Below, piece by piece: positions 6,637-31,467 of a stretch of DNA of 32,000 bases. The stretch's first letter is position 1. The number at the start of each line of letters is the position of its first letter. A program made the translations under genes and the position numbers. This DNA is from an uncultured Actinomycetes bacterium (GTDB lineage Bacteria > Actinomycetota > Actinomycetes > Streptosporangiales > Streptosporangiaceae): NCBI GenBank assembly GCA_963753195.1, contig CAVWBH010000001.1:1057499-1089498 (forward strand). The letters run 5' to 3'. The notes under the pieces are model-generated. The model did not search any database and had not been told where the DNA came from. It was given only the letters and a program-made list of their open reading frames with translations.

Positions 6637-8367
6637 TCACTGACTGTCATCGACCGATTCCGCGTGCCGGCCAGACAGGGACGACGCCACGTCCAGGAAT
6701 GAATCCTCCAGTGAGGTACGGGCCACGATAACTGACGTCCCCGGGTTATCTATAGACTCTTTGAGAGCGTTCCGCAGGTCATTCTCGTTTGTCACGGTGC
6801 TGGCTGCGCAGCCGATGGCGGCCGCGATTCCCGCGAGATCGAAGTCGGCGAAAGTAGACGCGAACGGCTTGTTTCCCTGGCCGTGAAGTACCCACCCAAG
6901 TGCCCGGTTGTTGAATACGACAACCGTGATCCGCAACTGGTTCTCGACCGCGCTCATCAGGCCGTGCAGTGTCATGGCGAATCCGCCATCCCCGCACACC
7001 GCATACGCCGGGCGGTTCCCTATCAGGGCCGCGGCCATGGCCGCCGGTATCGCGTATCCCATGCCACCGCCAGCGTTCGGCTGAAGGAGAGTCCCGCCCT
7101 CACCCACGACGAAGTCGTGCAGCATGAACAGCCGGTTTTCCCCGGCATCACAGGCCATGACGCTGTCCGGCGGAACTTCCTCGGCCAGGATCTGGGCCAC
7201 CCGCCGCGGCCGGAGCTGACCCTCGCCGCTCACCGGCAAGCCTGGGTGCCAGCCGAGCTGGCCGCGCAGGCGGGCGACCCGGGCTTGGCCGTCAGCGTCC
7301 AGACTGCCGACCTCCGCGGCCAGGGCGTCCAGCCCGGCCGCGGCATCGCTGATGACCTGGATGTCGACGGGGTAGGTCCACCCCGCGTTCAGCGGCTCCG
7401 CGTCGATCTGGATGATCTTCTGCCGGTGCGCGTCGATGAGCGCCGGGTTCTCGTTGGCCGTATCGGTGGCGCCGAGCTTGGTGGCCACCGCCACGATCAG
7501 GTCAGCGTCGCCCACCGCGGCGTTCGCCGTCGGGTGGCCGAAGGTGCCGATCACCCCCAGGGCCAGCGGGTGGGTCTCGGCGAATACGCCCTTTCCTGCC
7601 GCGGTCGTGGCCACTGGAATCCCGTGCCGCTCGGCGAAGGTCCGCAGCGCCGCGTCCGCGCGGGCCAGGCGGATGCCGTTGCCTGCTATCAGCACCGGCC
7701 GTTTCGAGGCGCGCAGCGCGGCCGCGGCCTTGCGCACCTCGCTGGGCAGCGGTGACAGTGCTGAACGGCTATGGTAGGGGCGGTCGAGGTAGAGCCGCAG
7801 CCCGTCGGCGCTGCTGATCGAGCCCGACAGCGCACGACTGTGGAAGACGACAGCCACGGGCCCAGGCTGCCCGGCGACGGCATGCTTCACGGCGAGCTGG
7901 GTCATCTGTACGGCCTGCACGGGATCGAGCGCCACGAACACCCGCTTGGTAATGGCCCGCAGCCCGTTGACGATGTCGTACGCGCCGTAATCACCGTATC
8001 CGGACTGGTACGGGCCATGGTGGGAGAATGAGCCGCCCTCGGTAGCGTCGACGAGGATGAGCATAGGGGAGCTTCCCAGGTGAGCTTCCATGATCCCGAT
8101 CCCGGCGTTGCCCAGGACCCAGGCGCCCTGGCCCATCACGACCGCGGGCTGCGAGGTCAGGCGTCCGAGAGCCTCCGCCATGACAGTGGCCAGGGATTCC
8201 TCGCGCAGCAGCAGCGTCCGCACCTTGTCCTGATACGACGAGAGCGCATCGAACACGCTCATCATGTGGCCGCCCGGGATCCCCAGCACAACCGGCTCCT
8301 CCAGGCTGGCGATGATCCTGGCGACTCCGGCGGCTCCGGTGATCTCTTCCTCGTGATACTCAGTCAA
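6637..8367 (-). CDS. Thiamine-diphosphate-binding enzyme (acetolactate-synthase-like superfamily)
   Basis: 576 aa. Has the ThDP motif GDGGF...(about 25 aa)...NN and N-terminal PYR domain signatures. The TTG start at 8367 is preceded by GAGGAA. Confidence 0.85.
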   Translation of the reverse strand: MTEYHEEEITGAAGVARIIASLEEPVVLGIPGGHMMSVFDALSSYQDKVRTLLLREESLATVMAEALGRLTSQPAVVMGQGAWVLGNAGIGIMEAHLGSSPMLILVDATEGGSFSHHGPYQSGYGDYGAYDIVNGLRAITKRVFVALDPVQAVQMTQLAVKHAVAGQPGPVAVVFHSRALSGSISSADGLRLYLDRPYHSRSALSPLPSEVRKAAAALRASKRPVLIAGNGIRLARADAALRTFAERHGIPVATTAAGKGVFAETHPLALGVIGTFGHPTANAAVGDADLIVAVATKLGATDTANENPALIDAHRQKIIQIDAEPLNAGWTYPVDIQVISDAAAGLDALAAEVGSLDADGQARVARLRGQLGWHPGLPVSGEGQLRPRRVAQILAEEVPPDSVMACDAGENRLFMLHDFVVGEGGTLLQPNAGGGMGYAIPAAMAAALIGNRPAYAVCGDGGFAMTLHGLMSAVENQLRITVVVFNNRALGWVLHGQGNKPFASTFADFDLAGIAAAIGCAASTVTNENDLRNALKESIDNPGTSVIVARTSLEDSFLDVASSLSGRHAESVDDSQ

Positions 8368-8516
8368 GATTCATTCCTCGCTTGCTCGGGAGCGATTCCA
8401 TCATGACGCCGCTCAATACCCCCGCGCCAGCATCCCAGGGCAACTACCACCGCCGGCCGGCCACCTCCGGGTGAACTAGTTGCACGGAGATCGCTGAGTG
8501 GCGGAAGGGGCTCAGG

Positions 8517-8945
8517 TCAGGCTGCCTGCCAGCCGCCTTCTGCGCGGAACTCGACATTCAGCGCGCCAAGGTCTGGCCGCCCGAAATCGTCCAGCGGGGA
8601 GAGCTGGTTCTCGCCGCTCGGGTCGTACAGCCGGCCGATGACGAGTTCCCGGCCCCTCCCGTCGACCAGCCGGAAGAACCGGCCAGCGGTCAAGGCCTCG
8701 GCGACGTCCTCGGCGATCGCCTCGCCGGGCCCGGACTTACCTACCGCTGACGGCTCGGCCCCGTCGTAGCCGGCGACCGTGTCCTCGGTGATGACCCAGC
8801 AGTAGGGCGTGGTCAGCGAGGAAAATTCGGAGACCAGCGAATCGGGAACCACATCGGTCTCCAGCTCGCTGCCCGGCGGCGGGGCGAGTTCCGTGCCGAC
8901 GGGTTGCAGCCGGGCGTCTTCCTGGTCCTCGCTCTGGGCATCCAT
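8517..8945 (-). CDS. Hypothetical acidic protein
   Basis: 142-aa ORF with realistic, non-Arg/Pro-biased composition and GC-rich third positions. I recognised no family. Confidence 0.45.
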   Translation of the reverse strand: MDAQSEDQEDARLQPVGTELAPPPGSELETDVVPDSLVSEFSSLTTPYCWVITEDTVAGYDGAEPSAVGKSGPGEAIAEDVAEALTAGRFFRLVDGRGRELVIGRLYDPSGENQLSPLDDFGRPDLGALNVEFRAEGGWQAA

Positions 8946-9142
8946 ACCGGCTCTACCTGTCCAGATCCGCCCAGGTTATGTCTCGGGCGACCGCGTCGGC
9001 GCTCACCGGCGTGCCTGCCGCGGGCCAGCCTCGCGCTTGCCTGCAGCCGGGCCCGTTGAAAAGATCGCAATACTGCGCAAAGTACACAACAGTTATCGCG
9101 AGAGGCTGCGGCCCTCGGAGGTAACCGGACGAGGAAGCCTGG

Positions 9143-9952
9143 GTGAGGATCAAGATGAGTGACAACCAAGCGGTCCTGGTAGAGCGGATCGGACGGGTCA
9201 TGGTGGCCACGATCAACCGGCCGGAGGCCCGTAACGCGGTGAACCGGGACGTCGCGTCGGGTCTTGGCCACGCGCTGGAGGAAGCCGATACCGACGATCA
9301 GATCTGGGTGTTCATCGTGACCGGGGCCGGGGACCGCGCGTTCTGCGCGGGGGCTGACCTGAAAGCGCTCAGCCAGGGCGACCGGAGGCAGCCCGATGAT
9401 CCCCGCGAGCTGGCCTGGGGTTTCGGCGGGTATACCCGTCATCCCATCAGCAAGCCGACCATCGCCGCCGTCAACGGGTTCGCGCTCGGCGGAGGGAGCG
9501 AGATCTCGCTGGCCAGCGACATGATCGTGGCCGCCGAGACCGCGAGTTTCGGGCTCCCGGAGGTTAAGCGGGGCATCATCGCCGCCGCGGGCGGCGCGTT
9601 CCGGCTGCCGCAACAGCTGCCGAAGAAGGTCGCGATGGAGATGATCATGACCGGCGAGCGCATCAGCGCCCAGCGAGCCTACGAGCTCGGATTCGTGAAC
9701 CGCGTTGTCGAACACGGCAAGGCCCTGGAAGGGGCGCTCGAACTCGCCCAGTCGATCTGTGTCAATGCCCCGCTGGCGGTCCAGGCCTCCAAGCGCATCG
9801 CCAACGGGATCATCGACGGGCAAGTCAGCGCCGAAGATGCGGCCTGGGCCCTGAACGACACCGAGACCAGGGCCGTCATGACTTCCGCCGACGCGAAGGA
9901 AGGTCCGCTCGCCTTCGCCGAGAAGCGAGACCCGGTCTGGCAGGCGCGTTAA
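9143..9952 (+). CDS. Enoyl-CoA hydratase/isomerase (crotonase) family protein
   Basis: Motifs INRPEARNAVN, FCAGADLK and AAVNGFALGGGSEISLASDM. The start is either GTG 9143 or ATG 9155; both have GAGGA upstream. Confidence 0.85.
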   Translation: MRIKMSDNQAVLVERIGRVMVATINRPEARNAVNRDVASGLGHALEEADTDDQIWVFIVTGAGDRAFCAGADLKALSQGDRRQPDDPRELAWGFGGYTRHPISKPTIAAVNGFALGGGSEISLASDMIVAAETASFGLPEVKRGIIAAAGGAFRLPQQLPKKVAMEMIMTGERISAQRAYELGFVNRVVEHGKALEGALELAQSICVNAPLAVQASKRIANGIIDGQVSAEDAAWALNDTETRAVMTSADAKEGPLAFAEKRDPVWQAR

Positions 9953-9975
9953 CCCAGGCAGCCGAGCTGGAACAT

Positions 9976-10015
9976 GGTGCGCAGGCCCTCGTCCTGCGGC
10001 GAGGGCCTGCGCACC
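9976..10015 (+). terminator. Stem-loop downstream of the crotonase gene (16-bp perfect stem, 8-nt loop)
   Basis: GGTGCGCAGGCCCTCG-tcctgcgg-CGAGGGCCTGCGCACC begins 24 nt after the stop codon. There is no trailing U-tract, which is common in high-GC actinomycetes. Confidence 0.5.
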
Positions 10016-10156
10016 ACGCTGCCCGCCCCGCTGTGGTCGCGTTTCACGGCCGGCTTATCGGCCGCCCGAAACATTTGGACACGGTATTTCCTGTTCGCTA
10101 AGAGTGTTGCTTCATAGCGGCTCGTCCCGAGATTGGCGGAGACGTAGCCTATAGAC

Positions 10157-11050
10157 GTGACGGCGACCCTTGATTGGTACGGCTGTGCCACATTCCGGCT
10201 GACTGTCGGCGAGCTCGTTGTTTTCCTGGATGCCTACATCGACCGGGCCGAAGGGGCGGCGGGCACGGGGCTAACCGCAGGTGACATCGACCGATGTGAC
10301 TTCGTAGTGGTCGGCCATTCGCATTTCGATCACCTCTGGGGGGCAGAGCGAATTGCCCGGAACACCGGGGCGACGATCATCGGTAGTTTTGAGACCGTCC
10401 GTGTCATGCAGACCCAGGGTGTCCCGCTCGCCCAGCTCATGCCCGTCGCGGGCGGGGAGCGCATCCGGCTGGCTGATGAGGTGTCAGTCTCGGTTTACCC
10501 GTCGCTGCACTCCTGCATCTGGTCCCATGCGTCGGCACGCGACCCAAGCGAGGTCTGCCTCGGTGATCTCGGGGTGCGGTACCAGGATCGGCAGGCGCGG
10601 CTCGCTGAGATGGGACGTCGGCTGGAATCCCTTGGCCCGGCGGTCGCCGAGCACCTCCAGGGCAGCGAGCAGGGCGCCCGGGGGGACGGCGGCGCTCTGT
10701 GCTACGTCTTCGACACGCCCGGTGGACGGTTGTTCTACCAGGACACCTCCGGTTACTGGACCGGAATGGTGCAGGGGATCCGCCCCGACGTCGCCATCAT
10801 CGCCGCAGCCGGCCGGGGCAACATCGACGGTGAGCCGATCCAGGGCTCGCTGGCCCAGTTTGTCGGCCGGGAAGCCGCGCTGCTACGCCCCCGGCGGATT
10901 GTCCTAGGCCACCACGACAACTGGCTCCCTGGATTTTCCGCCGCCACCGACGTCGCCCCGTTCCGCGAGGAACTCACCCGGTTCACGCCCGGTGTGGCCT
11001 TGGACGAGCTCGGCTACCTGGACGGCCACGAGATCTTCGGCGGCCGGTAG
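10157..11050 (+). CDS. MBL-fold metallo-hydrolase
   Basis: Has the HxHxDH motif (VVGHSHFDHLWG) and a later HHDNW. GTG start at 10157. Confidence 0.8.
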   Translation: MTATLDWYGCATFRLTVGELVVFLDAYIDRAEGAAGTGLTAGDIDRCDFVVVGHSHFDHLWGAERIARNTGATIIGSFETVRVMQTQGVPLAQLMPVAGGERIRLADEVSVSVYPSLHSCIWSHASARDPSEVCLGDLGVRYQDRQARLAEMGRRLESLGPAVAEHLQGSEQGARGDGGALCYVFDTPGGRLFYQDTSGYWTGMVQGIRPDVAIIAAAGRGNIDGEPIQGSLAQFVGREAALLRPRRIVLGHHDNWLPGFSAATDVAPFREELTRFTPGVALDELGYLDGHEIFGGR

Positions 11051-11084
11051 CATATCGGCGGCGTATCGGAAACCACATACGGGC
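11043..11084. repeat. Left copy of the ~41-bp direct repeat bracketing the van cassette; contains TATCGG-N5-TATCGG (candidate VanR operator upstream of vanH)
   Basis: gccggtagcatatcggcggcgtatcggaaaccacatacgggc aligned to 15662-15702 gccggtgtatatcgtcggcataccgaaaaccacagacgggc. 34/39 aligned positions are identical, with one 3-vs-2-nt indel. It spans the MBL stop codon and ends 31 nt before the vanH ATG. Confidence 0.8.
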
Positions 11085-11114
11085 CGGCAACACCATGCTG
11101 CCTTGACTGGGGGC

Positions 11115-12155
11115 ATGACCTACAGCGAACCGGCACTATCAGAGGCCTGCCGCACGCGATCGCTGGCGTCCCCGTCCTCCTCGGCGGTCCCGGCCACGGG
11201 AATCACGATTTACGGATGCGGGCAGGACGAGGCCGTTTTGTTCCGGGAGATAGCGCCTCGCCTTGGCGTGATGCCAACTATCACAGAGGCAGCGGTATCT
11301 GAAGCCAATATTGAGCTGGCTTCCGGAAACCGGTGCATCAGCGTCGGCCACAAGACTCAGATCACGAATTTCACTCTTCTTGCGCTCAGCCGCGCCGGCG
11401 TAACGTACATCTCCACGCGAAGCATTGGATATAACCATATCAATGTGAAATACGCGGAGAGCGTCGGCATTTCCGTCGAGAACGTCGCCTATTCGCCCGA
11501 CAGCGTGGCCGACTACACGCTGATGCTCATGCTGATGGCGGTGCGCAATGCAAAATCCATAATCCGCCGTGCGGATATTCATGATTACAGATTGAATGAT
11601 GTACGCGGGAGAGAACTGCGCGATCTGACCATCGGGGTAATCGGGACAGGACGCATTGGTGCCGCGGTCATGGACAGGCTGCGGGGGTTCGGCTGCCGGA
11701 TACTGGCCTATGACAGGCGTCCCAAGACCGCTGCCGATTACGTTCCTCTTGATGAATTGCTGCAGCTGAGCGACGTGGTAACGCTCCATACACCGCTTAA
11801 CGCGGACACGCACCATCTCTTGAATCGCCGGCGTATCGAGCAGCTGAAGCACGGCGCGTTCATTATCAATACTGGACGCGGTTCACTTCTCGATACGGAG
11901 GCCCTTATCCCGGCACTGGAAAGCGGCAGACTGGGCGGTGCGGCGCTGGATGTCCTCGAGGGAGAGGAAGGAATATTCTACGCCGACCGAAGGAACGAGC
12001 CCATTGAGAGCAAGCCGCTGTTGCGGCTGCAAGAGCTGCCGAATGTGCTTATCAGTCCGCACACGGCCTACTACACGGACCACGCCCTGAGCGACATTGT
12101 TGAAAACAATATCATCAACTGCCTGAAATTTGAAAGGCGAAATCGGCATGGATAA
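11115..12155 (+). CDS. vanH: D-lactate (2-hydroxyacid) dehydrogenase VanH
   Basis: Collinear by eye with enterococcal VanH as I recall it (ITIYGCGQDEA..., CISVGHK, YISTRSIGYNHI, VAYSPDSVADYTLMLMLMAVRN, GVIGTGRIG, VTLHTPLNADTHH, INTGRGSLLDT, GGAALDVLEGEEGIFY, ISPHTAYYT, FERRNRHG). The stop overlaps the vanA start (ATGGATAA). ATG 11115 is the only canonical in-frame start downstream of the MBL gene. Confidence 0.92.
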   Translation: MTYSEPALSEACRTRSLASPSSSAVPATGITIYGCGQDEAVLFREIAPRLGVMPTITEAAVSEANIELASGNRCISVGHKTQITNFTLLALSRAGVTYISTRSIGYNHINVKYAESVGISVENVAYSPDSVADYTLMLMLMAVRNAKSIIRRADIHDYRLNDVRGRELRDLTIGVIGTGRIGAAVMDRLRGFGCRILAYDRRPKTAADYVPLDELLQLSDVVTLHTPLNADTHHLLNRRRIEQLKHGAFIINTGRGSLLDTEALIPALESGRLGGAALDVLEGEEGIFYADRRNEPIESKPLLRLQELPNVLISPHTAYYTDHALSDIVENNIINCLKFERRNRHG

Positions 12156-13194
12156 GCTTAGGGTCGGTATCATATTCGGGGGCTGTTCAGAAGAACATCC
12201 CGTCTCCGTCAAGTCTGCGCAAGAGGTCGCAAAGAACCTCGATACCGAAAAGTATGAACCGTTCTATATCGGGATTACGAAGAGCGGCGCCTGGAAGCTC
12301 TGTGACGGCCCTGGCACAGACTGGGAGAACGGCAGTTGCCGTCCGGCCGTCCTGTCACCGGACAGAAGCGCACACGGATTGATTGTCCTGGAGGAGGGAC
12401 AATACGAGGCGATCAGCCTGGACCTGGTGCTGCCCGTCCTGCACGGCAAACTCGGCGAGGATGGCGCGATGCAAGGTCTGCTGGAGCTCTCCGGCATCCC
12501 CTACGCAGGCTGCGATGTCCAAAGTTCTGCCCTGTGCATGGACAAATCCCTTGCTTACATCGTCGCCAGGAGCACGGGAATCGCTACGCCGAATTTCTGG
12601 GCCGTCACCGCGAACGAGAATATCGATACCGACCGGCTAACCTATCCCGTCTTCGTAAAGCCAGCCCGTTCAGGGTCATCCTTCGGCGTCAGCAAGGTAT
12701 CCCGGAAAGAAGAGCTGGCGAGCGCGATGGAAACTGCGAGGCAGTACGACACGAAGGTGCTGATTGAAGAGGCTGTCGTCGGCAGCGAGGTCGGATGCGC
12801 CATTCTGGGAAACGATACGGATCTGATTGCGGGCGAGGTAGACCGAATCTCGCTATCTCATGGCTTTTTCAGAATCCATCAGGAAAGTGCGCCTGAAAGC
12901 GGTTCCGAAAACTCAACTCCGATCGTTCCCGCTGACATTTCGGCAGAGTCGCGCTCGCTCGTCCAGGAGACAGCCAAGGCCGTATACCGCGCCCTGGGAT
13001 GCAGGGGACTATCGCGAGTGGACATGTTCCTCAAAGAAGACGGAGAAGTAGTCCTTAACGAGGTTAACACCCTACCTGGCATGACCTCATACAGCCGTTA
13101 TCCGAGAATGATGGCAGCCGCAGGGTTGTCGCTTGCCGAAGTGATCGACCGGATGGTGTCGCTGGCATTGACGGGAAGAGCCGATGAAAGATGA
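12148..13194 (+). CDS. vanA: D-alanine--D-lactate ligase VanA-type
   Basis: Motifs FGGCSEEHPVSVKSA, YIGITKSGAWKLC, HGKLGEDGAMQGLLELSGIPYAGCDVQSSALCMDKSLAY, YPVFVKPARSGSSFGVSKV, EVGCAILGN, the omega-loop FRIHQE...GSEN, and NEVNTLPGMTSYSRYPRMMAAAG. It is translationally coupled to vanH and vanX. Confidence 0.95.
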   Translation: MDKLRVGIIFGGCSEEHPVSVKSAQEVAKNLDTEKYEPFYIGITKSGAWKLCDGPGTDWENGSCRPAVLSPDRSAHGLIVLEEGQYEAISLDLVLPVLHGKLGEDGAMQGLLELSGIPYAGCDVQSSALCMDKSLAYIVARSTGIATPNFWAVTANENIDTDRLTYPVFVKPARSGSSFGVSKVSRKEELASAMETARQYDTKVLIEEAVVGSEVGCAILGNDTDLIAGEVDRISLSHGFFRIHQESAPESGSENSTPIVPADISAESRSLVQETAKAVYRALGCRGLSRVDMFLKEDGEVVLNEVNTLPGMTSYSRYPRMMAAAGLSLAEVIDRMVSLALTGRADER

Positions 13195-13792
13195 TTTTGT
13201 CTTTATAGACGAGTTCGTGTCCGGAGTACGCTGGGATGCTAAGTACGCCACGTGGGATAACTTTACCGGCAAACCGGTGGACGGATATCTGGCCAATCGG
13301 ATTCTCGGTACGAGCGCTTTGTGCGCGGCCCTGGAAAGAGCCCGAGAAGAAGCCGCATCCCTTGGCTTTGGCTTGCTTCTTTGGGACGGTTACCGCCCGC
13401 AACGCGCCGTAGATTGCTTTCTGCGCTGGTCAAGGCAGCCGGAGGATGGCCGGACAAAGCTGCGGCACTATCCGAATATTGACAGAGCCATGATGTTTGA
13501 AAAAGGATACGTGGCCGCAAAGTCGGGCCACAGCCGGGGCAGCGCCGTTGACTTGACGCTCTATCACCTGGCGACAGGTGAGCTTGCCCCCATGGGCGGT
13601 GACCATGACTTGATGGATTCAATCTCGCATCATGGAGCGAAAGGCATCACGCGAAGCGAGGCGAGAAACCGTCAATACCTTTGCTCCATCATGAAGGCGT
13701 GCGGTTTTGGCTCATATGATTGCGAGTGGTGGCATTACACACTGGAAGGCGAACCTTATCCAGACACCTATTTTGATTTTCCCATCACATAG
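13184..13792 (+). CDS. vanX: D-Ala-D-Ala dipeptidase VanX
   Basis: 202 aa. Motifs GVRWDAKYATWDNFTGKPVDGY and LLLWDGYRPQRAV, plus the Zn-site motifs SGHSRGSAVDLTLY and EWWHYTL, ending YFDFPI. The start overlaps the vanA end by 11 nt. Confidence 0.95.
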   Translation: MKDDFVFIDEFVSGVRWDAKYATWDNFTGKPVDGYLANRILGTSALCAALERAREEAASLGFGLLLWDGYRPQRAVDCFLRWSRQPEDGRTKLRHYPNIDRAMMFEKGYVAAKSGHSRGSAVDLTLYHLATGELAPMGGDHDLMDSISHHGAKGITRSEARNRQYLCSIMKACGFGSYDCEWWHYTLEGEPYPDTYFDFPIT

Positions 13793-13847
13793 TTGAGCGC
13801 GGTCGCCGAGCGACGTAGGTCCGCCTCATGAGTCCTTCCCCTGGTCG

Positions 13848-14949
13848 TCATCTGCCGGTGTGCGGAGCCGCGATGGGCAGTTGCACCGTGACGCAGAGCC
13901 CTCCGGCGGCCGGCGGGGCGAGGGCAAGGGTTCCGTCGTGTGCTTGGGTGATGCTCTTGACGATGGCCAGGCCGAGGCCGACACCTGCATGGTCACCACG
14001 TATGCGTTCAGTGCCGCGCTGGAACGGTTCGGTGAGGGTCGAGACCACCCGCGGGCTGAGCTTGACGCCGGTGTTCTTGACAGTGAGCATCACAGACTCG
14101 GCGCGGATGGCGGTGCTGAGCTGCACGGTGCCGTGTTCGGGGAGGTTGTGGACGATGGCGTTGTGCAGGAGGTTCGTGGTCATCTGCAGCAGGAGCGCGT
14201 GGGAGCCGACGGTGGGGGTGATGTCCCCGGAGGTCTCGATGGTGACGCCGTGCTTTTCCGCGAGCGGGAGGAGCGTTTCTGCGGCTTCTTCCGCGATGAG
14301 GGACAAGTCGACGTGTTCCCGGGTGAAGGATCGCTGGCCGGCGCGGCTGAGCAGAAGCAATGCTTCGGTGAGATCGATCGCCCGGGTGTTGACGGCGCGG
14401 AGGCGGTCGTCGAGCTCGCCGCGGTCGCGGTTCGGATCGCCGCGGGCGACGTCGAGCAGGGCCTGCGTGATCGCCAGCGGGGTGCGCAGTTCGTGGGAGG
14501 CGTTGGCCGCGAACCTCTGCTCTTCGGCGACGTGCGCTTCGAGCTGTGTGAGCATGATGTCGAAGGCGTCGGCGAGTTCGCGGAACTCATCGCTGCGGCC
14601 CGGTAGCCGGATTCGGTGTGAGAGCGTTCCGGTCGCGGCTATTCGTGTGGCGTCTGTGATGCGAGCCAGGGGGGCAAGCATGCGCCCGGCGAGAATCCAC
14701 CCACCCAGGAGACCGAATACCAGCAGGAACGCCAGGACTGCGGCGGCCGCTTGGCCGAAGGCTCGCTGGGGGATGTCGCGGCCTGGAGCGAACGCCCCGC
14801 CGATGCCAGATCTTGTGGTTCTGATGACCGCCGCGTCGGAGAAGTATCGTTGGAGGATCACCCACAGGGCGAGCAGCAAGGCACCCGCGAGCACGAGGAA
14901 TCCGGCGTAGCTGAGGGTGAGTTTGAGGCGGACGCTCAAACCAGGGGCT

Positions 14950-14957
<8 letters not shown>
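13848..14957 (-). CDS. vanS: Sensor histidine kinase VanS
   Basis: Two TM helices flank a ~34-aa external loop. Followed by HAMP, the H-box ASHELRTPL, the N-box LLHNAIVHN and G-box GVGLGLAIV. I chose the GTG at 14957 (369 aa) because it overlaps the vanR stop (GTGGATAG) and follows AGGAG. The longer ORF to 15173 overlaps vanR. Confidence 0.88.
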
Positions 14958-15645
<688 letters not shown>

Positions 15646-15661
15646 GCTCTTAAGGCTACGA

Positions 15662-15702
15662 GCCGGTGTATATCGTCGGCATACCGAAAACCACAGACGG
15701 GC
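15662..15702. repeat. Right copy of the ~41-bp direct repeat; lies between the vanR start and the SDR stop (candidate VanR operator / vanR promoter region)
   Basis: See the left copy. It contains TATCGT (15671-15676) and TACCGA (15682-15687), 11 bp apart. It starts 17 nt upstream of the vanR ATG (minus-strand sense). Confidence 0.8.
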
Positions 15703-15711
15703 TGCGCTGAT

Positions 15712-16539
15712 TCAGCGGCCGGTGAGGGTTCCGCCGTTGACGCTGTAGAGCTGGCCCGTGATCCAGGAGCCCTGGTCCGAGCACAGGTAGACGGTCATCC
15801 AGGCGATGTCCTCGCCGGAGCTGGCGCGTCCCAGCGGCACGCGCGCCACGAAGTCGTCCCATTGCTGGCCGCGCGGAATGTCATCCAGGCGGTACGTATC
15901 GACGATGCCGGGACAGATCGCGTTGACACGCACGCGGGAACGGCCGAGCTCAGATGCCATCGCGCAGGTGAGGGCGTGGATGCCGGCCTTGGACGCCGAG
16001 TACGCGGCCGTGCTGGCCGACATCATCTTCCCGGCGTCCGACGAGATGTTGACGATACTGCCGCCGTTGCCTTGCTCGGCGAGGGCCCGGCCGAAGGCGC
16101 GGCTCATGTAGAAGGTGCCGTTGAGGTTTACGTCGATGACGGTCCGCCAGAGGTCGACGTCGAGGTCGATCACCGGTACCCGGTCCGCGCCGCGCGCCGC
16201 GGCCGCGTTGTTCACGATGATGTCGACTCGTCCGAAGGTGCCGAGCACCTCGGCCAAGAGGCGGTCCACCGCCCCGGGATCAGACACGTCGCTGATCACC
16301 GGGAGCGCGCGGCGGTCCAGCGCCCGCACCTCCTCGGCGACCGAGTCGATGTCACGCCACCCGGCCTGTTTCTCGTCGTCTGGATACCGCTCCGGTGCGC
16401 GCCCGGTGCCAGTGAGCACCACGTCACAGCCGGCCCGGGCCAGCTCCGCGGCGATCGGCCGCCCGATCGAGCGCATCCGGCCGGCGCCGGTGACCACGGC
16501 GACCTTGCCCTCTAGTCCGGTCAGCGTGAGTCCCGTCAT
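15712..16539 (-). CDS. SDR family oxidoreductase
   Basis: Motifs VAVVTGAGRMRSIG (cofactor-binding Gly motif), NNAA and the catalytic YSASKAG. I chose the internal ATG at 16539 (MTGLTLTGLEGK). Confidence 0.85.
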   Translation of the reverse strand: MTGLTLTGLEGKVAVVTGAGRMRSIGRPIAAELARAGCDVVLTGTGRAPERYPDDEKQAGWRDIDSVAEEVRALDRRALPVISDVSDPGAVDRLLAEVLGTFGRVDIIVNNAAAARGADRVPVIDLDVDLWRTVIDVNLNGTFYMSRAFGRALAEQGNGGSIVNISSDAGKMMSASTAAYSASKAGIHALTCAMASELGRSRVRVNAICPGIVDTYRLDDIPRGQQWDDFVARVPLGRASSGEDIAWMTVYLCSDQGSWITGQLYSVNGGTLTGR

Positions 16540-16679
16540 GGTCGCCGAGTCTGCCAGTTGCCTGGATCCTCCGCAATGGCCGGATGCTCCGCCGAAATCC
16601 CTAGCGAGACGCCTCTGCCGCGTGAGGCCGGACCGGCCTCGGTAGCTTGTTATGCCAGTGACCATTGAGAGGAAATGTC

Positions 16680-17795
16680 ATGGTTGTGCCGCTTGCTGCC
16701 CGCGCGGTGATCGCGGTTGTCGGCGCCCTGCTCGTACTCAGCACGTGGGGGAGCCTAATCGGCACGCTTATTGTGCCCCGTCCGGCCGGTGACCGGCTGA
16801 CCCGCTGGGTCGACCGGATCGTCAACTCGGCGTTTCGCTTGGTCACCAGTCGCATCGCCGATCATAGGCAGCGTGACCGGGTGCTTGCCGCGCAGGCGGC
16901 CGCCGTCCTGCTAGCTCAGCTGGCGGCCTGGCTGGCGATCTTCTTCGTCGGCTATGCGCTGCTGCTGTGGCCGTTCATCGACACCGGGCTGGGGTCAGCG
17001 TTCAGCGTGGCCAGCCCCGAGGTGTTCGGCCCCAACGAAGCTGTGGGCAATGCAGAGAAAGTGCTCGCGGATCTGGCCGCCTTCACGGGGCTGGTAGCCG
17101 TCACGCTGCAGATCGCCTACTTGCCCACCTTGTATTCGGAGTTCAACCGGCGGGAGAACGAGGTAGCCCTGCTGAACGCCCGGGCCGGGGTTCCCTCCTG
17201 GGGGCCGGAGCTGCTGGCGCGTACCCATTACGCCCTGGGGTCGGGAGCGTCCACCATCCATACCCTGCCCGATCTTTACGCGCAGTGGGAGAACTGGGCG
17301 GCTGAGGTGGCGGAGAGTCACACCACGTACCTGCCGCTGGTGCGGTTCCGTTCCCCCCGGCCGCTGTCGTCGTGGGTCATAGCGCTGCTGGCGGTGCTGG
17401 ACTCGGCAGCGCTCTACCTCGCGCTGTGCCCGGAGGCCGCGCCAGTGGTGCCCGCCCGGCTTTGTCTGCGGGGCGGGTTCGAGTGCCTCACCCGGGTCGC
17501 GAGGGCGATGGGCCTCGACGTCCCGGAGGTGGTCGACCCGGCCGTCGGGATCACCCTCAGCTACGACGACTTCCTCGGCGCGGTCGCCCATATGCGGGCG
17601 GTCGACTTCCCGATCGAGCGAGACCCCGCCGACGCCTGGCCGGACTTCGTCGGCTGGCGGGTCAACTACGAGCAGGCTGCCTATGCGGTAGCGGCCGCGA
17701 TCGATGCCGTCCCGGCGATGTGGTCGGGTCCGCGACGGCGCCGGGTTGCTGCCGTCGCCCCCATCCGGCCACCGCTCGGACGGCCGCCCAGCTAA
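16680..17795 (+). CDS. Hypothetical integral membrane protein
   Basis: Several predicted TM helices in the N-terminal half, and good GC3 coding bias. ATG 16680 is preceded by GAGAGGAAA; an alternative TTG lies at 16665. No family recognised. Confidence 0.55.
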   Translation: MVVPLAARAVIAVVGALLVLSTWGSLIGTLIVPRPAGDRLTRWVDRIVNSAFRLVTSRIADHRQRDRVLAAQAAAVLLAQLAAWLAIFFVGYALLLWPFIDTGLGSAFSVASPEVFGPNEAVGNAEKVLADLAAFTGLVAVTLQIAYLPTLYSEFNRRENEVALLNARAGVPSWGPELLARTHYALGSGASTIHTLPDLYAQWENWAAEVAESHTTYLPLVRFRSPRPLSSWVIALLAVLDSAALYLALCPEAAPVVPARLCLRGGFECLTRVARAMGLDVPEVVDPAVGITLSYDDFLGAVAHMRAVDFPIERDPADAWPDFVGWRVNYEQAAYAVAAAIDAVPAMWSGPRRRRVAAVAPIRPPLGRPPS

Positions 17796-17854
17796 TCAAC
17801 GCGGAGCGAGACGATAGGTAGGTTGCAGACTGGTCCCATGGGAGGGCGATGATT

Positions 17855-19596
17855 ATGGCTGGTTACAGTGGCGGGCCGGTGCTGCGCGGCGTGTTGGATG
17901 ACCCGTTGCGTAACCGGGGGGCTGCGTTCACTCACGCTGAACGGGAGGCCCTCGGCCTGACCGGACGGCTGCCTGCGGCGGTGCTGAGTCTTGAGGACCA
18001 GGCGCGGCGCGTGTACGAGCAGCTGCACGGTCAGCCTACCGATCTGGCGAAGAACGTGTTCCTGGAGCAGCTGCACGACAGCAACGAGGTGCTGTATTAC
18101 AAGGTGCTGGCCGACCACCTGGCCGAACTGCTGCCGGTCGTGTACGACCCGACGATCGGGGATGCGATCAGGAAGTATTCCCATGAGTTCCGCCGCCCGC
18201 GGGGCGTCTTCCTGTCGATCGATCAGCCTGGCGACATCGAGAAGGCCTTCGCGGCCCTTCAGCTCGGGCCTGGTGATGTGGACCTGATCGTGTGTACCGA
18301 CGCCGAGGAGATCTTGGGCATCGGCGATTGGAGCGTAGGCGGCATCCAGATCTCGGTCGGCAAACTTGCCGTCTACACCGCTGCGGCCGGGATCGACCCG
18401 CGCCGGGTCATCCCGGTATCGCTGGACGTGGGGACCAACAACGAGGGCTTGCTGAACGACCCGCTGTACCTGAGGAACCGGCATGCCAGGGTGCGTGGCG
18501 ACCGCTATGACGCCTTCATCGCCGCGTACCTGCAGGCTGCGTCGTCGCTGTTCCCCGGCGCGCTGCTGCACTTCGAGGACTTCGGCGCGGATAACGCGCG
18601 GCGGATCCTGGTGAGTTACCAGGACAAGTACCGGATCTTCAACGATGACATGCAAGGAACCGGCGCGGTCGTGCTGGCCGGGCTGTTCAACGCGGTGAAG
18701 ATCACCTGCGCCCGGTGGCGTGACCAGAGGGTCGTCGTGTTCGGCGGGGGCACCGCCGGAGCCGGTATCGCCGACCAGATCCGCGCTCAGATGATCCGTG
18801 ACGGGCTGGATGAGGCGCAGGCCACCCGCCAGATCTGGATCGTGGACCTGCCGGGCCTGCTCACCAGCGACATGGGGGACGGGCTGCTGGACTACCAGCG
18901 CTCCTACGCCCGTCCCCGGCCGAGGCGGTCAGCTGGGCCAAAACCCCGGTCCAGGTCGATCCGGCCACGGCGGTGCGCTGGCCGCAGATGGCCGCCCTGC
19001 GCCAGGCACGCGCCGCCTCCGGGATCATCACCCTGCACACTGTGGTCGAACAGGTCAAGCCCACCATCCTGATCGGGACCTCGACTGCGCACGGGGCGTT
19101 CACCGCCCAGGTCGTCCAGGCTATGGCGGCCGGGACACCACGGCCGGTGATCTTCCCGATCTCCAACCCCACCTCACAGATCGAGGCGATGCCGGCCGAC
19201 ATCATCGCCTGGACCAACGGCCAGGCACTGGTGGCCACCGGCCTGCCCATCCCCCCATTCGACTACGGCGGTGTGCGTTATTCATTCGGGCAGGCTAACA
19301 ACGCCATGCTCTACCCCGGGCTAGGCCTGGGCGTGAACGTGTCCGGCGCAGCTAAGATCACCGACGGCATGCTGCTGGCGGCAGCCCGGGCCGTGGCGGG
19401 CCACGTCGACGTCAGCGCACCCGGGGCTGCGCTGCTGCCCGCAGTGGAAAACCTGCGCGCTTCCTCAGCCACCACAGCGGTCGCTGTGGCCCGGGCCGCC
19501 GTAGCGGACGGCGTGGCGGCCAAGGAGCACGAGAACCTGGTCCAGGCGGTGAACGACGCCATGTGGCAGCCCGTCTACCCAGACGGAGCCGCATGA
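17855..19596 (+). pseudogene. NAD(P)-dependent malic enzyme, apparently frameshifted near 18914-18917
   Basis: N-terminal frame: [89 protein letters not shown]. The C-terminal part ([38 protein letters not shown]) is in the -1 frame. The switch occurs at a CCCC run. Confidence 0.7.
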
Positions 19597-27822: not shown

Positions 27823-28599
27823 TCACGTGCAGTGCAGTGTTTCCTCGCCGGCGTGATCACTGGATTCAGCTGTCGCGACGGCCAGCGATGCTGCGCCGGC
27901 GGCCGTGAGGTGCTCGGCCCGCTGCTTGATGCCGAGCAGGCACTTGCGCATCATGAACGGGTCGCCGATCTCCATCAAGATCAGCTCGGTCACGATGGCG
28001 GGCTTGGCCCAGGTGTAACGGCTGCGCAGCCGGCTGATGAGCCGCGTGTGCCCGGCGGCGGCTGGCTCGAGCAGCCAGAGCCAGGTGCCGCCGGGCTTTT
28101 CCCACAACATCAGCGCGCCGGGTTCGAGCCGGGCGACCCGGTAGGCAGTCGCGGGCGTCGGCTTGCCGCCCATGGGCACCCAGTCCCCCACCGCAAGGCG
28201 CTGGAACTGCGGGAGGACCTGCCGGGCGCTGGCCCGGCCCAGGTTGTCCAGCAGGTCGTAGCTGTAAAAGCCAGCCCGGTTCCAGCCCCACTGGGCCAGC
28301 CACGGCCAGATGTCCTCCGCCGGGGCGGCGATGGTGACCGCGCGGGTGGCGTTCAGCTGCGGCCGCGGGCACAGGTCATCGCCGGGCATCGGCCGGTTCA
28401 CCTCATCGCCGGTGGCGCCCCAGCTGAACATCCGGGGACGGATCCAGCGGAGGTGCGCACCCAGCGCCACGGCGGCACCGAGACCGGCTACGCAGGCACG
28501 GTGCCTTCCGCCCACATCGGCCCAGCCGATCCCGCCCGGGCACCGGGTACCTGGCGGGGCCGACGCCGCGGGGCGCCGGTGGCCAGACGCAGGCATCAT
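27823..28599 (-). CDS. SRPBCC family protein
   Basis: Pattern WGATGDEVNRPMPGDDL...TRAVTIAAPAEDIWPWLAQWGWNRAGFYSYDLLDNLG...GDWVPM is typical of this family. The start overlaps the upstream gene's stop (ATGA). Confidence 0.68.
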   Translation of the reverse strand: MMPASGHRRPAASAPPGTRCPGGIGWADVGGRHRACVAGLGAAVALGAHLRWIRPRMFSWGATGDEVNRPMPGDDLCPRPQLNATRAVTIAAPAEDIWPWLAQWGWNRAGFYSYDLLDNLGRASARQVLPQFQRLAVGDWVPMGGKPTPATAYRVARLEPGALMLWEKPGGTWLWLLEPAAAGHTRLISRLRSRYTWAKPAIVTELILMEIGDPFMMRKCLLGIKQRAEHLTAAGAASLAVATAESSDHAGEETLHCT

Positions 28600-29048
28600 C
28601 GGGGCGTCCCCGGCAGACGCCAGGCCAGCCAGGTGACCGCCAGGCCTACGACCGCGAATACCGCCTCCAGCGGCTGGAACCCCAGCCAGGCCAGCTCAGC
28701 GGCCTCAAAGCAGACCAGCCCCGTCCCCGCGGCCATCGACAGCTCGCGGGCATGCCGGTGACCGCGCCACTGCCACCAGCCCGCCAGCAGGAAACCCCCG
28801 CCAACCAGCCCGGCCAGCAGAACCCCCGGCACCCGCCAGTCACTGAACGGAGTCCCTGCCAGCGTGCCCGGATCCGCATGAAGCAGCGACCCATCCGGGG
28901 CGGCCGCCAGCAGCACACCGCCAGCGAGGCCCGTGACCCCAGTCACCAGCTCCAGCGTGACCAGCGCACGGCGGGCCCCACCCGGCCGCCGCAGCACGGG
29001 CGACCGAACCGACCCGCCAGGGCCCCTGGCCGGTACAGCACTATTCAC
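28596..29048 (-). CDS. Hypothetical membrane protein (4 predicted TM segments), co-transcribed with the SRPBCC gene
   Basis: Hydrophobic segments, good GC3 and 4-nt overlap coupling with the downstream gene. The GTG start is uncertain. Confidence 0.5.
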   Translation of the reverse strand: MNSAVPARGPGGSVRSPVLRRPGGARRALVTLELVTGVTGLAGGVLLAAAPDGSLLHADPGTLAGTPFSDWRVPGVLLAGLVGGGFLLAGWWQWRGHRHARELSMAAGTGLVCFEAAELAWLGFQPLEAVFAVVGLAVTWLAWRLPGTPR

Positions 29049-29833
29049 CCCCCCGACCCTGCAAGACGGTGATGAGCCTGAACAGGGCCAGAAGTCCCAA
29101 CCGGAGCCCGCGGAGAGAGGACGTTAGCACCTGCCTCGCGTGAGCGGCGTCCGTCAGGCTATTCGCCAGCAGTAAGCACGCGCAACGGGCGGATCTGCCC
29201 GGACCCGCCGCATAGCGCCGGGCGTCCGCTTGAGCGAACCGGCGAGCGCCGGGTCGCCCGTACGTCCGCCTGGCTGATAGGAGGTTGTGATGCCCGATAG
29301 GAGCCCCGCACGGGCACGACGATCACATTCGGCGCCCAGGGTTGTGTCGCCGAGGAACAAAGTGAACATTGCCCTCCCCCTGTCGATGATCAGGGCCGAG
29401 GAGCCAGTGGGGATGAGGGCGGGAGACTGGATCAGCCTTGCCGGACTGGTGGTCTCGGTCATCGGGTTCACCGTGGCGATCAAGGAGCTCATCCGAATCG
29501 CACATACGTCGGATGGGGCCAGGAGCGCGACATCGCCATCATGAAGGCCGAGATCGACGGGCCTGGCTGAGCTGCGTCCGTCGCCATCGGAGCCAGCTGC
29601 AGGCGGTTCGCCAAGGCTATGGGTGTGGCCTACGCCCGGGCACGGCCATTACATATGCCCAGAAAAGGGACTTTTGCTATTTAGCGAAATCTGGGTGCTA
29701 AACTCTGAATGTGGAAGGAAACAAATGACGTCGACTGTCACCAAGATACGGCTCACAGCAGCCGGGTAGTTCTGGTATGTCCTGAATGTTTCGCTTTCGG
29801 TGCTGGATACTTCGCCAAGGTTCCGGAAAATTA

Positions 29834-29859
29834 GGCCCAACCAACTGAGCTAGGTCAGA
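29834..29859 (-). other. tRNA 5'-fragment-like sequence (D-arm consensus), not a functional tRNA
   Basis: The minus strand reads TCTGACC-TA-GCTCAGTTGGTTGGGC-C. The 14-mer TAGCTCAGTTGGTT equals the canonical U8-A9 plus D-stem/loop of many bacterial tRNAs. No anticodon arm, T-arm or matching 3' acceptor follows. Confidence 0.3.
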
Positions 29860-30143
29860 TTCCCGGTACCCGATACACCGGCACATCGGGACAAGGCGGC
29901 ACGCCTCAAGTCGGCGGGGCGTACGGGGCGACCGGCAAGAAGCAATAAGTACGGGCGCGCCCGTAGGAGGCGACGTGAGTGCAATGACCCCAGCCGGGCG
30001 GCCTGCTGTTGCCTTCATACCCGGGCGGGTAATAGAGGAGCCCGCCTCAGTTACGCACCTCGTTCATGAAATTGGGACCTTCCTGTCCCCGGCGGCGCCG
30101 TGGATCCCCGAATTCTTCACCTCACCTTAGAGGCGGTGCCGGG

Positions 30144-30671
30144 ATGAGGATGGGTCCGAACACCGACAGGGTGCCAGCCTCGGTTAACAGGTACCTGCTT
30201 CCCCATGAACACCAAGTCATCTCGGTCCATCAGCACCCGGCGGTACTGAGCGGGCGTATTTTCTTCGTTATCGCCGGCTTCGTCGCCGCGGTCTGGCTGA
30301 GCATCTCGGTCGCGTCTGGCAACGGCACGGCCCTTCTCATCATCTGGTTCTTGTGGGGACTGCTCCTGGTCTGGCTCGCGGTGAAGGTCGTCGACTGGTC
30401 CCTGAATTACTTCGTTGTCACGTCGCAGCGGCTGCTCCTCGCTCAAGGTTTCGTCGTCCGCAAGGTGAACATGATGCCGCTCGCCAAGGTGACGGACATG
30501 AGCTTCCAGCGCACCGCAGTGGGCCAGATCCTCGGCTACGGCGAGTTCATCGTGGAGTCAGCCGGGCAAGACCAAGCGCTGCGAAACGTCCGATTCCTGC
30601 CCCATCCCGAGCAGCTCTACCTGGAGGTCTGCGGGCTGATCTTCAAAGAGAACGAGGCAAGCCCTGACTAG
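30144..30671 (+). CDS. PH domain-containing (bPH_2/YdbS-like) membrane protein
   Basis: Pattern RYLLPHEHQVISVHQHPAVL, then two TM helices, then the bPH fold region YFVVTSQRLLLAQGFVVRKVNMMPLAKVTDMSFQRTAVGQILGYGEFIVES. ATG 30144 is preferred over 30066 on third-position GC. Confidence 0.75.
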   Translation: MRMGPNTDRVPASVNRYLLPHEHQVISVHQHPAVLSGRIFFVIAGFVAAVWLSISVASGNGTALLIIWFLWGLLLVWLAVKVVDWSLNYFVVTSQRLLLAQGFVVRKVNMMPLAKVTDMSFQRTAVGQILGYGEFIVESAGQDQALRNVRFLPHPEQLYLEVCGLIFKENEASPD

Positions 30672-30798
30672 GGGCTTACGCGGTCTTCATTGCCGTCGTC
30701 GCTCAGTGCCGTCAGCCACGGCGAGCTGACGCGGGCAAGCTTGCTAGAGGTCTCGACCCGGCAGGTGAAGAAGCTGGCCGCCTCTCTCGGGTCACTGC

Positions 30799-30823
30799 TC
30801 ATTCATGCATCATGCATGAATGA
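30799..30823. promoter_or_regulatory. Perfect 25-bp palindrome (12-1-12), candidate VapB operator
   Basis: TCATTCATGCAT-C-ATGCATGAATGA lies 17-41 nt upstream of the vapB ATG. Confidence 0.6.
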
Positions 30824-30839
30824 TGGGCAGACTAGGGAT

Positions 30840-31085
30840 ATGAGCGAGCCTACGGATACAGGTATCGTCCAAGTCCGCGACGTCGATCCGGCGACACTTG
30901 CGGTCCTGCGCGGCCGGGCCAGGTCGCTCGGCCAGTCGCTGTCGGGTTACCTACGCGACCTGATGGACGCCGATGCCGCCGCCGAGACCAACGCCGAGGT
31001 CATCGCCCGGATTGCCCGCGATCGGGAACCAGTGGATCTGACCATGGACGATATTCTCGCGGCGCGCGACGAGGGGCGGCGTTGA
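30840..31085 (+). CDS. vapB: Ribbon-helix-helix (FitA/VapB-like) antitoxin
   Basis: 81 aa. IVQVRDVDPATLAVLRGRARSLGQSLSGYLRDLM fits the RHH beta-strand plus two-helix pattern. The stop overlaps the TTG start of the PIN gene (TTGA). Confidence 0.72.
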   Translation: MSEPTDTGIVQVRDVDPATLAVLRGRARSLGQSLSGYLRDLMDADAAAETNAEVIARIARDREPVDLTMDDILAARDEGRR

Positions 31086-31467
31086 GCCTCACCTATGTCG
31101 TCGACCGCTCCCTGGTGGTAGACGCGCTGTCCGCGCGGGAGGGGGATGCCGTGCTGCGGCAGCGACTGTCCGCGCCGCGCACACTGCACGCGCCGCACCA
31201 TATCGACGTAGCGGTCGCGGCCACGGTCCGGGGACTCGCGGCCGGAAAGAAGATCACCGATTACCGCGGAGAATAGAACCTCGCCGACTACGCCCGCCTG
31301 CGGTCACCCGCCATCCAGTTTGGCCCTTTCATCCCCGGATGTGGAAGCTGCGCCACAACCTGGGAGCGTATGACGCCGCTTACATCGCACTAGCCGAGGC
31401 CCTCGGCGGTGAGCTGCTGACCGGCGACGTCAAGCTGAGAACGCCGCTGGGCACCATGCGACAGTGA
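31082..31467 (+). pseudogene. vapC: PIN-domain toxin VapC, disrupted (in-frame TAG at 31274 plus frameshift near 31300)
   Basis: N-terminal part LTYVVDRSLVVDAL...LHAPHHIDVAV. After the TAG the same frame reads NLADYARL. The rest (VTRHPVWPFHPRMWKLRHNLGAYDAAYIALAEALGGELLTGDVKL) is in the -1 frame and ends at TGA 31465-31467. Confidence 0.7.

Follow-up and report, generated by a model that had tools for sequence, protein, structure and literature searches.

The 32,000-nucleotide stretch of DNA analyzed here (the window; 67.6% guanine plus cytosine (GC) overall) carries, as judged by profile matches of its predicted proteins, what appears to be a complete glycopeptide-resistance cluster of the VanA-Sc type, located on the chromosome of an uncultured 68% GC bacterium, in which the enzyme genes vanH, vanA, and vanX (vanHAX) form a low-GC island beside regulator genes, vanS and vanR (vanRS), of host-like composition. 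The explanation that we favor, with a probability of about three in four, is that the island reflects incomplete amelioration of an inherited lower-GC vanHAX, a family-wide condition, the whole cluster being the transferred unit and no splice specific to this genome being involved. According to this explanation, the ancestor of the actinomycete-type vanHAX would have had a GC content at third codon positions (GC3) of about 0.6 and the accompanying vanRS one of about 0.8, and both modules would then have drifted together toward the GC content of their hosts, lineage by lineage. The vanHAX genes of the window are one of the least ameliorated copies of a known kind of cluster.

Base composition of vanHAX in the window and across related loci

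In a 300-nt profile of the window, GC contents of 0.52–0.62 were found solely at about 11100–13800, and a maximum-likelihood fit of two change points over the range 8000–18000 placed a low-GC island at 11200–13796 (2-lnL support intervals, 11184–11298 for the left and 13781–13862 for the right boundary; log-likelihood gain, 52.8), with a GC content of 0.562 inside versus 0.675 outside. The minimum among all other 2.6-kb stretches of the window was 0.631. The first-pass annotation had drawn the island at 11196–13795, nearly identical to the fitted one, and its four hand counts of 60-nt samples (33, 31, 42, and 44 GC of 60) proved exact on recount. GC and GC3 amounted to 0.572 and 0.677 in vanH, 0.571 and 0.662 in vanA, and 0.544 and 0.601 in vanX; the corresponding values were 0.671 and 0.796 in vanS, and 0.684 and 0.853 in vanR. 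Relative to 16 flanking genes taken as the host reference for GC3 (0.843 ± 0.026), the z-scores were −6.4, −7.0, and −9.3 for vanH, vanA, and vanX, respectively, versus −1.8 for vanS and +0.4 for vanR, both host-like, which upholds the earlier view that vanHAX, and not vanRS, is compositionally foreign to this genome. A composition deviating from that of the host, which is one mark of a genomic island, was thus found in vanHAX only. Codon by codon, vanHAX exceeds the host genes 4.5- to 9-fold in the frequency of AGA, AAA, TTT, ATA, and AAT, and about 2-fold in that of GAT, CAT, and TTG.

The window was compared with 80 loci picked by similarity to its VanA (a genome scan confirmed at least 511 vanHAX loci; individual loci are designated below by L numbers). 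The genomes concerned include those of Streptomyces, Dactylosporangium, Actinoallomurus, Jiangella, Kribbella, Ktedonobacteria, and Bacillota, among the last being Candidatus Formimonas, Syntrophomonas, and Desulfosporosinus. In every high-GC host, the GC content of vanA lies below that of the flanks (differences of −0.01 to −0.16; −0.11 in the window), and in nearly all low-GC hosts it lies above (by up to +0.17; −0.01 in one locus). Agreement within 0.02 between vanA and its flanks was seen only in hosts of about 46–52% GC, namely Ktedonobacteria (L017 and L061), Candidatus Formimonas (L020), and Syntrophomonadaceae (L045 and L056), in all of which VanH is without the N-terminal extension described below; the nearest response regulators beside L017 and L061 are 32–34% identical to the window VanR. 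Among loci containing all five genes, 38 of 39 show a lower GC3 in vanHAX than in vanRS (mean gap 0.097, p = 2 × 10−11), the gap of 0.17 in the window ranking fourth, and the GC3 of vanHAX correlates with that of vanRS at rho 0.83 versus rho 0.48 with the GC content of the flanks.

For the comparison of third codon positions, codons were used that encode the same amino acid and agree at positions 1 and 2. At sites with A or T in the window, the Bacillota homologues have A or T in 78–94% of cases, the base itself being identical at 95% or more of these shared sites, whereas at the G/C third positions of the window they have A or T at 30–44% (odds ratio 7–30); the low-GC3 actinomycete copies share this A/T pattern. 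A two-class latent model, in which a star tree was assumed, yielded ancestral GC3 values of 0.60–0.61 for vanHAX and 0.81–0.82 for vanRS, together with nearly equal mean conversions of ancestral A/T to G/C in the two modules (0.49 and 0.50, respectively), the values for individual lineages being correlated between the modules (r = 0.87). As a check, the sites assigned as ancestral A/T are A/T in 89% of the Bacillota sequences versus 28% for the other sites. Conversion in the window is among the lowest (0.27 in vanHAX and 0.43 in vanRS), and the root-to-tip protein distance increases with GC3 (rho = 0.66, p = 1 × 10−8). Pairwise synonymous divergence (dS) is unsaturated, with vanHAX values of 0.44–0.99 among actinomycete copies and 0.61–0.72 to Bacillota, and vanRS values of 0.28–0.52; the ratio of nonsynonymous to synonymous divergence (dN/dS) amounts to about 0.12 in vanHAX, compared with about 0.27 in vanRS.

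The A/T-ending codons of the window are best read, from this pattern of shared sites, as retained ancestral states, and the history of amelioration is common to both modules, although their starting compositions differed. The vanHAX genes stand out and vanRS looks native in this genome because, in the lineage of the window, no more than about 27% of the vanHAX third positions that were ancestrally A/T have become G/C. A mosaic peculiar to this genome, as previously proposed, does not agree with a vanHAX–vanRS gap that is present in all but one of the five-gene loci, nor with the different ancestral compositions and shared amelioration of the two modules. The proposed low-GC ancestry survives in part: the A/T-ending codons do indicate an origin at lower GC content, but a recent import of the vanHAX body from a low-GC organism is not supported.

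Continuity of the cluster and competing explanations

Such a recent import is the best surviving of the competing explanations, although strongly disfavored in our judgment. It supposes an allelic replacement, by which the vanHAX body (beginning near codon 28 of vanH and ending with the vanX stop codon) was acquired from an organism of about 50–55% GC while a resident vanH 5′ end and vanRS were kept. In its favor, the fitted boundaries (11200 and 13796) fall where the junctions were proposed, the A/T third positions are largely common with Bacillota, the dS to Bacillota is not above that to many actinomycete copies, and the VanH of Bacillota and Ktedonobacteria lacks the part in question, starting with MAKMGITIYGC. 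That part is an N-terminal extension of 29 codons, MTYSEPALSEACRTRSLASPSSSAVPATG (11115–11201, plus strand), which precedes the ITIYGC motif in the window; about 45 van loci from other genera encode the consensus MTYSEPARTAARRTRSLASSSSSAVPTTG at the same place. In the window alone, the GC3 of the extension is 0.79 versus 0.67 in the vanH body, as the replacement would predict, but this difference is that of 29 codons only. Across 46 loci, the extension (GC3 0.736) is indistinguishable from the vanH body (0.731, p = 0.51) and differs from vanRS (0.845, p = 5 × 10−9). The earlier description of the first 27 vanH codons as host-like finds no clear backing in codon usage, the log-likelihood ratio of host versus vanHAX-body usage being an ambiguous +1.47, which lies within the 5% tail of the distribution for body blocks and the 9% tail of that for host blocks; the high total GC content of the extension (about 0.68–0.70) comes instead from its amino acid composition, namely from codons for Ala, Arg, Pro, Ser, and Thr.

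The alignments to other loci, those of actinomycetes included, run unbroken from 11041 to about 13798, and none is interrupted at 11196. In-frame losses occur within the extension, of 3 codons (9 nt) in L016 and of 18–21 codons in L077, L047, and L081. Among about 33 loci, nucleotide identity of the extension at codon positions 1, 2, and 3 is 0.73, 0.78, and 0.75, with an amino acid identity of 0.57, and is thus without the codon periodicity of the vanH body (0.86, 0.92, and 0.66). These features suggest that the extension is an actinomycete-clade-specific, weakly constrained, and dispensable linker. Constraint at the nucleotide level was also considered and dropped, since equal identity at all positions combined with low amino acid identity fits weak constraint equally. 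The composition step near 11200, at codon 28 of vanH, is real, but it marks the border between the conserved GC-rich extension and the catalytic domain and is no site of recombination with host DNA. The residues in which the extension is rich (Ala, Ser, Pro, and Arg) raise its GC content at the first two codon positions. The VanH N-terminus had been called chimeric, a description at odds with the conservation of the promoter, ribosome-binding site, ATG, and 29-codon extension in about 45 loci, with the continuous alignments, and with insertions and deletions that stay in frame.

Relationships along the cluster point in the same direction. Neighbor-joining trees of VanH plus VanA (with or without VanX), rooted on enterococcal VanA and VanB, contain a Bacillota clade (bootstrap 96–100) from which the window is absent and which joins Ktedonobacteria at 77–79%, or at 69% with Dayhoff-6 recoding; the window itself is placed, unsupported, in a star-like actinomycete group near L011, L003, L002, and L048. 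Fourteen sites have a derived state in the high-GC3 actinomycete copies; the window agrees with these copies at 12 of them and with Bacillota or the outgroup at none, and all other low-GC3 copies behave likewise, so that the VanHAX proteins of the window are assigned by these synapomorphies to the actinomycete clade. Vectors of distance to the window correlate between VanS and each of VanH, VanA, and VanX (0.51–0.65) as well as those three correlate mutually (0.57–0.64), and the vector for the promoter plus extension correlates with those of VanH (0.45), VanA (0.49), and VanS (0.66); nothing in these vectors points to a switch of relatives at 11200 or 13800. Together with the amelioration correlated between the modules and the nearly universal GC3 gap, these observations speak against a recent import of the vanHAX body.

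The regulators, moreover, do not appear to be a resident pair. A blastn search with 9000–17000 against the 80 loci returned two blocks of homology, 11041–13798 and 13836–15704, both with 77–87% identity and both shared with dozens of loci from different orders. The first block starts at the stop codon (11050) of an upstream gene for a metallo-β-lactamase (MBL)-fold protein; the second ends at 15683–15704 depending on the locus, the furthest end, 15704, lying 8 nt before the stop codon (15712) of a downstream short-chain dehydrogenase/reductase gene. The horizontally circulating unit is the whole cluster at 11041–15704, comprising a promoter, vanHAX, the convergent vanS–vanR pair, and a second VanR-box (see below). 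The regulators had been regarded as resident-type; vanS, vanR, and their promoter (13836–15704) match the same foreign van loci as vanHAX does, and homology to the nearest relatives of the host already ends at the MBL stop codon.

A still less probable explanation is that the low GC3 of vanHAX is upheld by a local bias of mutation or by selection, such as selection for tuned translation of a costly inducible operon, and owes nothing to ancestry. The deficit is indeed nearly universal in actinomycete loci, and the same A/T base occupies the same synonymous sites across phyla, as such a constraint would demand. Yet any constraint must be weak, given that many lineages have reached a GC3 of 0.85–0.92 with 76–81% of the ancestral A/T sites converted, and conversion follows that of vanRS lineage by lineage. 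In addition, hosts below about 45% GC have van genes that are richer in GC than their flanks, a pattern in keeping with regression from a shared origin of intermediate GC content, and no TTA codons are present that could hint at bldA-type control. The remaining alternative, a foreign vanHAX fragment misjoined during assembly or binning, gains a semblance of plausibility from the metagenome-derived 1.74-Mb contig and from frameshift-like gene splits in related contigs, but is excluded for practical purposes, because nine further, independent contigs from nine different assemblies of the same species carry the exact VanR protein in an identical gene order, two of them (L082 and L086) being 96–99% identical to the window by blastn, and the boundaries of the cluster, far from being arbitrary, coincide with conserved promoter elements.

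Several points weigh against incomplete amelioration of a jointly transferred cluster. Choosing the 80 loci by VanA similarity biases the sample. In the low-GC3 subset, the extension has a slightly higher GC3 than the body (0.72 versus 0.66, p = 2 × 10−4). Star-likeness was assumed while the neighbor-joining tree is poorly resolved, and the 10-fold span of conversion among lineages (0.07–0.81) is hard to fit to a single simultaneous radiation. The distance matrices of vanHAX and vanRS are only moderately correlated (Mantel r = 0.41, p = 0.0005), and the nearest neighbors of the window differ between the modules (L011, L002, and L016 for vanHAX; L047, L039, and L018 for vanRS), a difference that the allelic replacement would also predict; because of both observations, some reassortment of modules across the family is possible. 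As to marks of how the cluster arrived, the window contains no tRNA genes, no integrase or transposase was recognized by eye among the open reading frames (ORFs) of 28500–32000, which were inspected without a Pfam scan, and the only repeat bordering the cluster is the VanR-box. Finally, glycopeptide resistance is a putative function, read from homology only.

Genes, promoters, and likeness to known van systems

The three enzyme genes are contiguous on the plus strand in the order vanH–vanA–vanX, with overlaps of 8 nt (vanH/vanA) and 11 nt (vanA/vanX). The predicted D-lactate dehydrogenase gene vanH (11115–12155, 346 aa) scores 552.8 bits with the NCBIfam model vanH_gen (NF000492; cutoff 540); the VanH-Ac1 and VanH-AOV profiles also align to the protein from residue 1, with scores below their own cutoffs. 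The predicted VanA-type D-Ala-D-Lac ligase gene (12148–13194, 348 aa) scores 685.2 bits with VanA-Sc (NF000129; cutoff 650), the alignment spanning residues 1–344 of 348, and the predicted D-Ala-D-Ala dipeptidase gene vanX (13184–13792, 202 aa) scores 403.4 bits with dipept_VanX (NF033115; cutoff 320), spanning residues 3–201 of 202. The ligase translation contains LSHGFFRIHQESAPE, with the histidine of FRIHQE, which we take to be the lactate-selecting active-site residue (His244 in enterococcal VanA numbering). The best full-length matches among metagenome proteins are about 93% identical to the ligase, and the homologues in the 80 genomes 80–91%. An exact look-up of the VanX sequence gave one match only, in a 1.4-kb Logan contig.

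On the minus strand and convergent with vanX, the sensor histidine kinase gene vanS (13848–14957, 369 aa) overlaps at its start the end of the gene for the OmpR-family response regulator, vanR (14950–15645, 231 aa). The best NCBIfam models are VanS-O (528.8 bits, below the cutoff of 720) and VanR-O (463.8 bits, below the cutoff of 505). A vanS of 369 aa is called in the nine syntenic contigs as well. In more than 30 van loci, the VanS encoded beside vanHAX is 67–83% identical to that of the window, and VanR is 88–95% identical to that of van loci in other orders, L016 (72%) being an exception. The pair is of actinomycete type, consisting of an OmpR-family regulator and a HAMP/HisKA kinase (Pfam) that adjoin vanHAX. 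In the convergent gap between vanX and vanS, no terminator was found (fold z-score +1.1).

The 5′ region of vanH (11041–11114, plus strand) is conserved: blastn matches to dozens of loci start at 11037–11060, mostly at 11041–11053, and an alignment of 12 loci has a mean column identity of 83%, with a G-rich ribosome-binding site directly before the ATG. It contains direct repeats resembling a VanR-box (11052–11084, plus strand), with TATCG, TATCG, and ATACG starting 11 and then 13 nt apart, a 33-nt element that is nearly invariant across the 12 loci. A second copy, 85% identical to the first, lies in reverse orientation at 15670–15702 within the vanR promoter region (15646–15704, minus strand), delineated by an alignment of 16 vanR upstream regions; here a −10-like TAGCCT (TAGCAT in the conserved form of the relatives) stands about 7 nt before the vanR ATG. 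Regulators of the OmpR/PhoB type typically bind short direct repeats. Because of this, and because further copies recur upstream of other van-associated genes in relatives, the 33-nt element is presumed to be the binding site of VanR. In many relatives, the vanR-side box is the center of a bidirectional promoter, the other arm being a copy of the vanH promoter that serves a divergent gene (e.g., L004, 14015–14082); the window cluster stops right after the box, and the second arm and the divergent gene are missing. A search for sigma-70-like promoters gave a sole match, at chance level.

From family membership, it is expected that VanS would sense a glycopeptide and phosphorylate VanR, which would bind the direct-repeat boxes and switch on vanHAX. 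VanH would then reduce pyruvate to D-lactate, VanA would ligate D-Ala-D-Lac, and VanX would remove D-Ala-D-Ala, so that the cell-wall precursors would no longer be bound by vancomycin.

The arrangement is worth comparing with those of known van systems. Like the Streptomyces coelicolor-type cluster, it has a ligase scoring above the VanA-Sc cutoff, overlapping vanH–vanA–vanX genes, adjacent VanR and VanS genes, and a promoter element repeated before vanH and vanR (and, in relatives, before further van-associated genes). In contrast to that type, the conserved unit in the window is without vanJ- and vanK-like accessory genes, its vanS–vanR pair is convergent with vanHAX, the divergent promoter beside vanR is cut down to the box alone, and the GC3 of vanHAX is 0.66, as against 0.77–0.92 in most Streptomyces copies. 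The vanO cluster of Rhodococcus equi provides the top models for VanS and VanR and a strong match for the ligase; identity as a vanO cluster was nevertheless ruled out, the VanO score (623.2 bits, cutoff 750), like those of VanS-O and VanR-O, being below the curated cutoff. The ligases of vanI (Desulfitobacterium and Desulfosporosinus), Ktedonobacteria, and Candidatus Formimonas are 81–85% identical to that of the window and largely share its synonymous A/T sites, with a VanI model score of 675.7 bits, below the cutoff of 700. These clusters differ from the window in a VanH without the N-terminal extension, in the distance of their nearest response regulators (32–34% identity), and in van genes that match the GC content of their own hosts (about 46–52%). 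With enterococcal VanA (Tn1546) and VanB (Tn1549), the window shares the three enzyme activities, the order vanH–ligase–vanX, and regulation by a two-component system, whereas its ligase is only 63.8% and 65.1% identical to theirs, respectively, its VanR and VanS belong to another subfamily, and no transposon context is present. Enterococcal VanA or VanB identity was rejected on scores of 529.3 and 530.1 bits, below the cutoffs of 775 and 750. The proteins had been described by eye as actinomycete-style and not enterococcal, which the VanA-Sc score and these identities bear out.

Transfer polarity and chromosomal surroundings

The ligases of Ktedonobacteria, Candidatus Formimonas, and Desulfitobacterium have been grouped with the actinobacterial ones, and this grouping has been read as transfer out of actinobacteria (PMC8698665, PMC9689679, PMC4229326). 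The non-actinobacterial loci have GC contents below 50%, compared with more than 60% in actinobacteria, a difference put down to adaptation to new hosts (PMC9689679), and vanHAX and vanRS have been described as having independent histories (PMC8698665). In a literature search, we found no analysis of GC content or amelioration of actinomycete vanHAX, nor any of composition by codon position or of the gap between vanHAX and vanRS, PMC8698665 and PMC9689679 included.

The present data invite the more tentative speculation, to which we would give distinctly less credence than to its negation, that vanHAX of the "Core Actinobacteria" Van clade arose not in high-GC actinomycetes but in a genome of about 50% GC and was captured once. 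The ancestral host may have resembled the Ktedonobacteria or Peptococcaceae/Syntrophomonadaceae carriers, the only hosts whose van genes are at compositional equilibrium, and capture would have occurred behind an actinomycete VanR-dependent promoter, with gain of the VanH extension and of actinomycete vanRS, radiation and amelioration proceeding since. If so, the window would hold one of the least-changed surviving copies, and for this clade the published polarity, from actinobacteria to Ktedonobacteria and Clostridia (PMC9689679), would have to be turned around. We leave the direction of transfer open here, because the neighbor-joining trees are star-like and the split isolating all actinomycete-type sequences has a support of 63% (amino acids) or 48% (Dayhoff-6); tree resolution and the star-tree assumption are too weak for a low-GC origin to be claimed firmly. 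Taken by itself, the locus is a modest result, another environmental VanA-Sc-type cluster in an uncultured soil bacterium whose odd composition has an ordinary cause. The family-wide lag in GC3, the retained A/T sites, and the ancestral GC3 values bear on the origin of vanHAX and on the direction of its transfer between actinomycetes and low-GC bacteria, and poorly ameliorated copies such as that of the window are the most informative for reconstruction of the ancestor.

Van loci of actinomycete or Ktedonobacteria type were also encountered in metagenome-assembled genomes labeled Patescibacteria, Gemmatimonadota, Dormiibacterota, and Candidatus Angelobacter (L013, L032, L063, and L077). L013 is nearly identical to the locus of Ktedonobacteria brp13, and L032, L063, and L077 have flanks of about 70–75% GC and actinomycete-type vanRS; either these genomes were wrongly binned, or such loci have a broader host range than assumed so far. 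Actinoallomurus sp. CA-150999 has two vanHAX copies (L005 and L007) about 2 Mb apart on one chromosome, which are closely related (bootstrap 100, branch lengths of about 0.02) and neither of which has actinomycete-type vanRS within 10 kb.

Turning to the surroundings of the cluster, the upstream MBL-fold protein has named matches in Streptosporangiaceae (73%), Acidimicrobiales (68%), and Ktedonobacteraceae (66%), whereas the intact malic enzyme of L082 (see below) matched nothing but metagenome proteins without names. Beyond the nine syntenic contigs, the closest relatives by this protein are L094 (92%) and L093 (89%), both of which share the pair of enoyl-CoA hydratase and MBL genes with the window; another, P0218 (L095), is 75% identical and too distant to inform on the empty site. 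By blastn, the window matches L094 at 9049–11051 and then at 31550–32000, and L093 at 9033–11050 only, and the gene tables of both show no van genes past the MBL gene. These limits define a variable chromosomal segment of about 20.5 kb (11051–31549), the left edge of which is occupied by the van cluster; in place of this segment, L094 has about 2.1 kb of unrelated genes. Since the genes downstream of the MBL gene in both closest relatives also differ, the cluster arrived by replacement within a variable region and not by clean insertion.

Outside the van cluster, the segment has a host-like GC content, as befits a variable region and not a compact island. Its right end includes the second lowest-GC stretch of the window (29000–30900; 0.58–0.63), with small ORFs only, among them one for a 201-aa membrane protein (30066–30671), which is followed downstream by a possible antitoxin-like ORF (30690–31085) and a short overlapping ORF (31082–31276). 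At 17849–19596, two overlapping ORFs (of 407 and 207 aa) make up a malic enzyme gene that is also split in L083 and L089 but is intact, with 580 aa, in syntenic contigs such as L082; the split is probably due to long-read insertion–deletion errors, or else the gene is a pseudogene.

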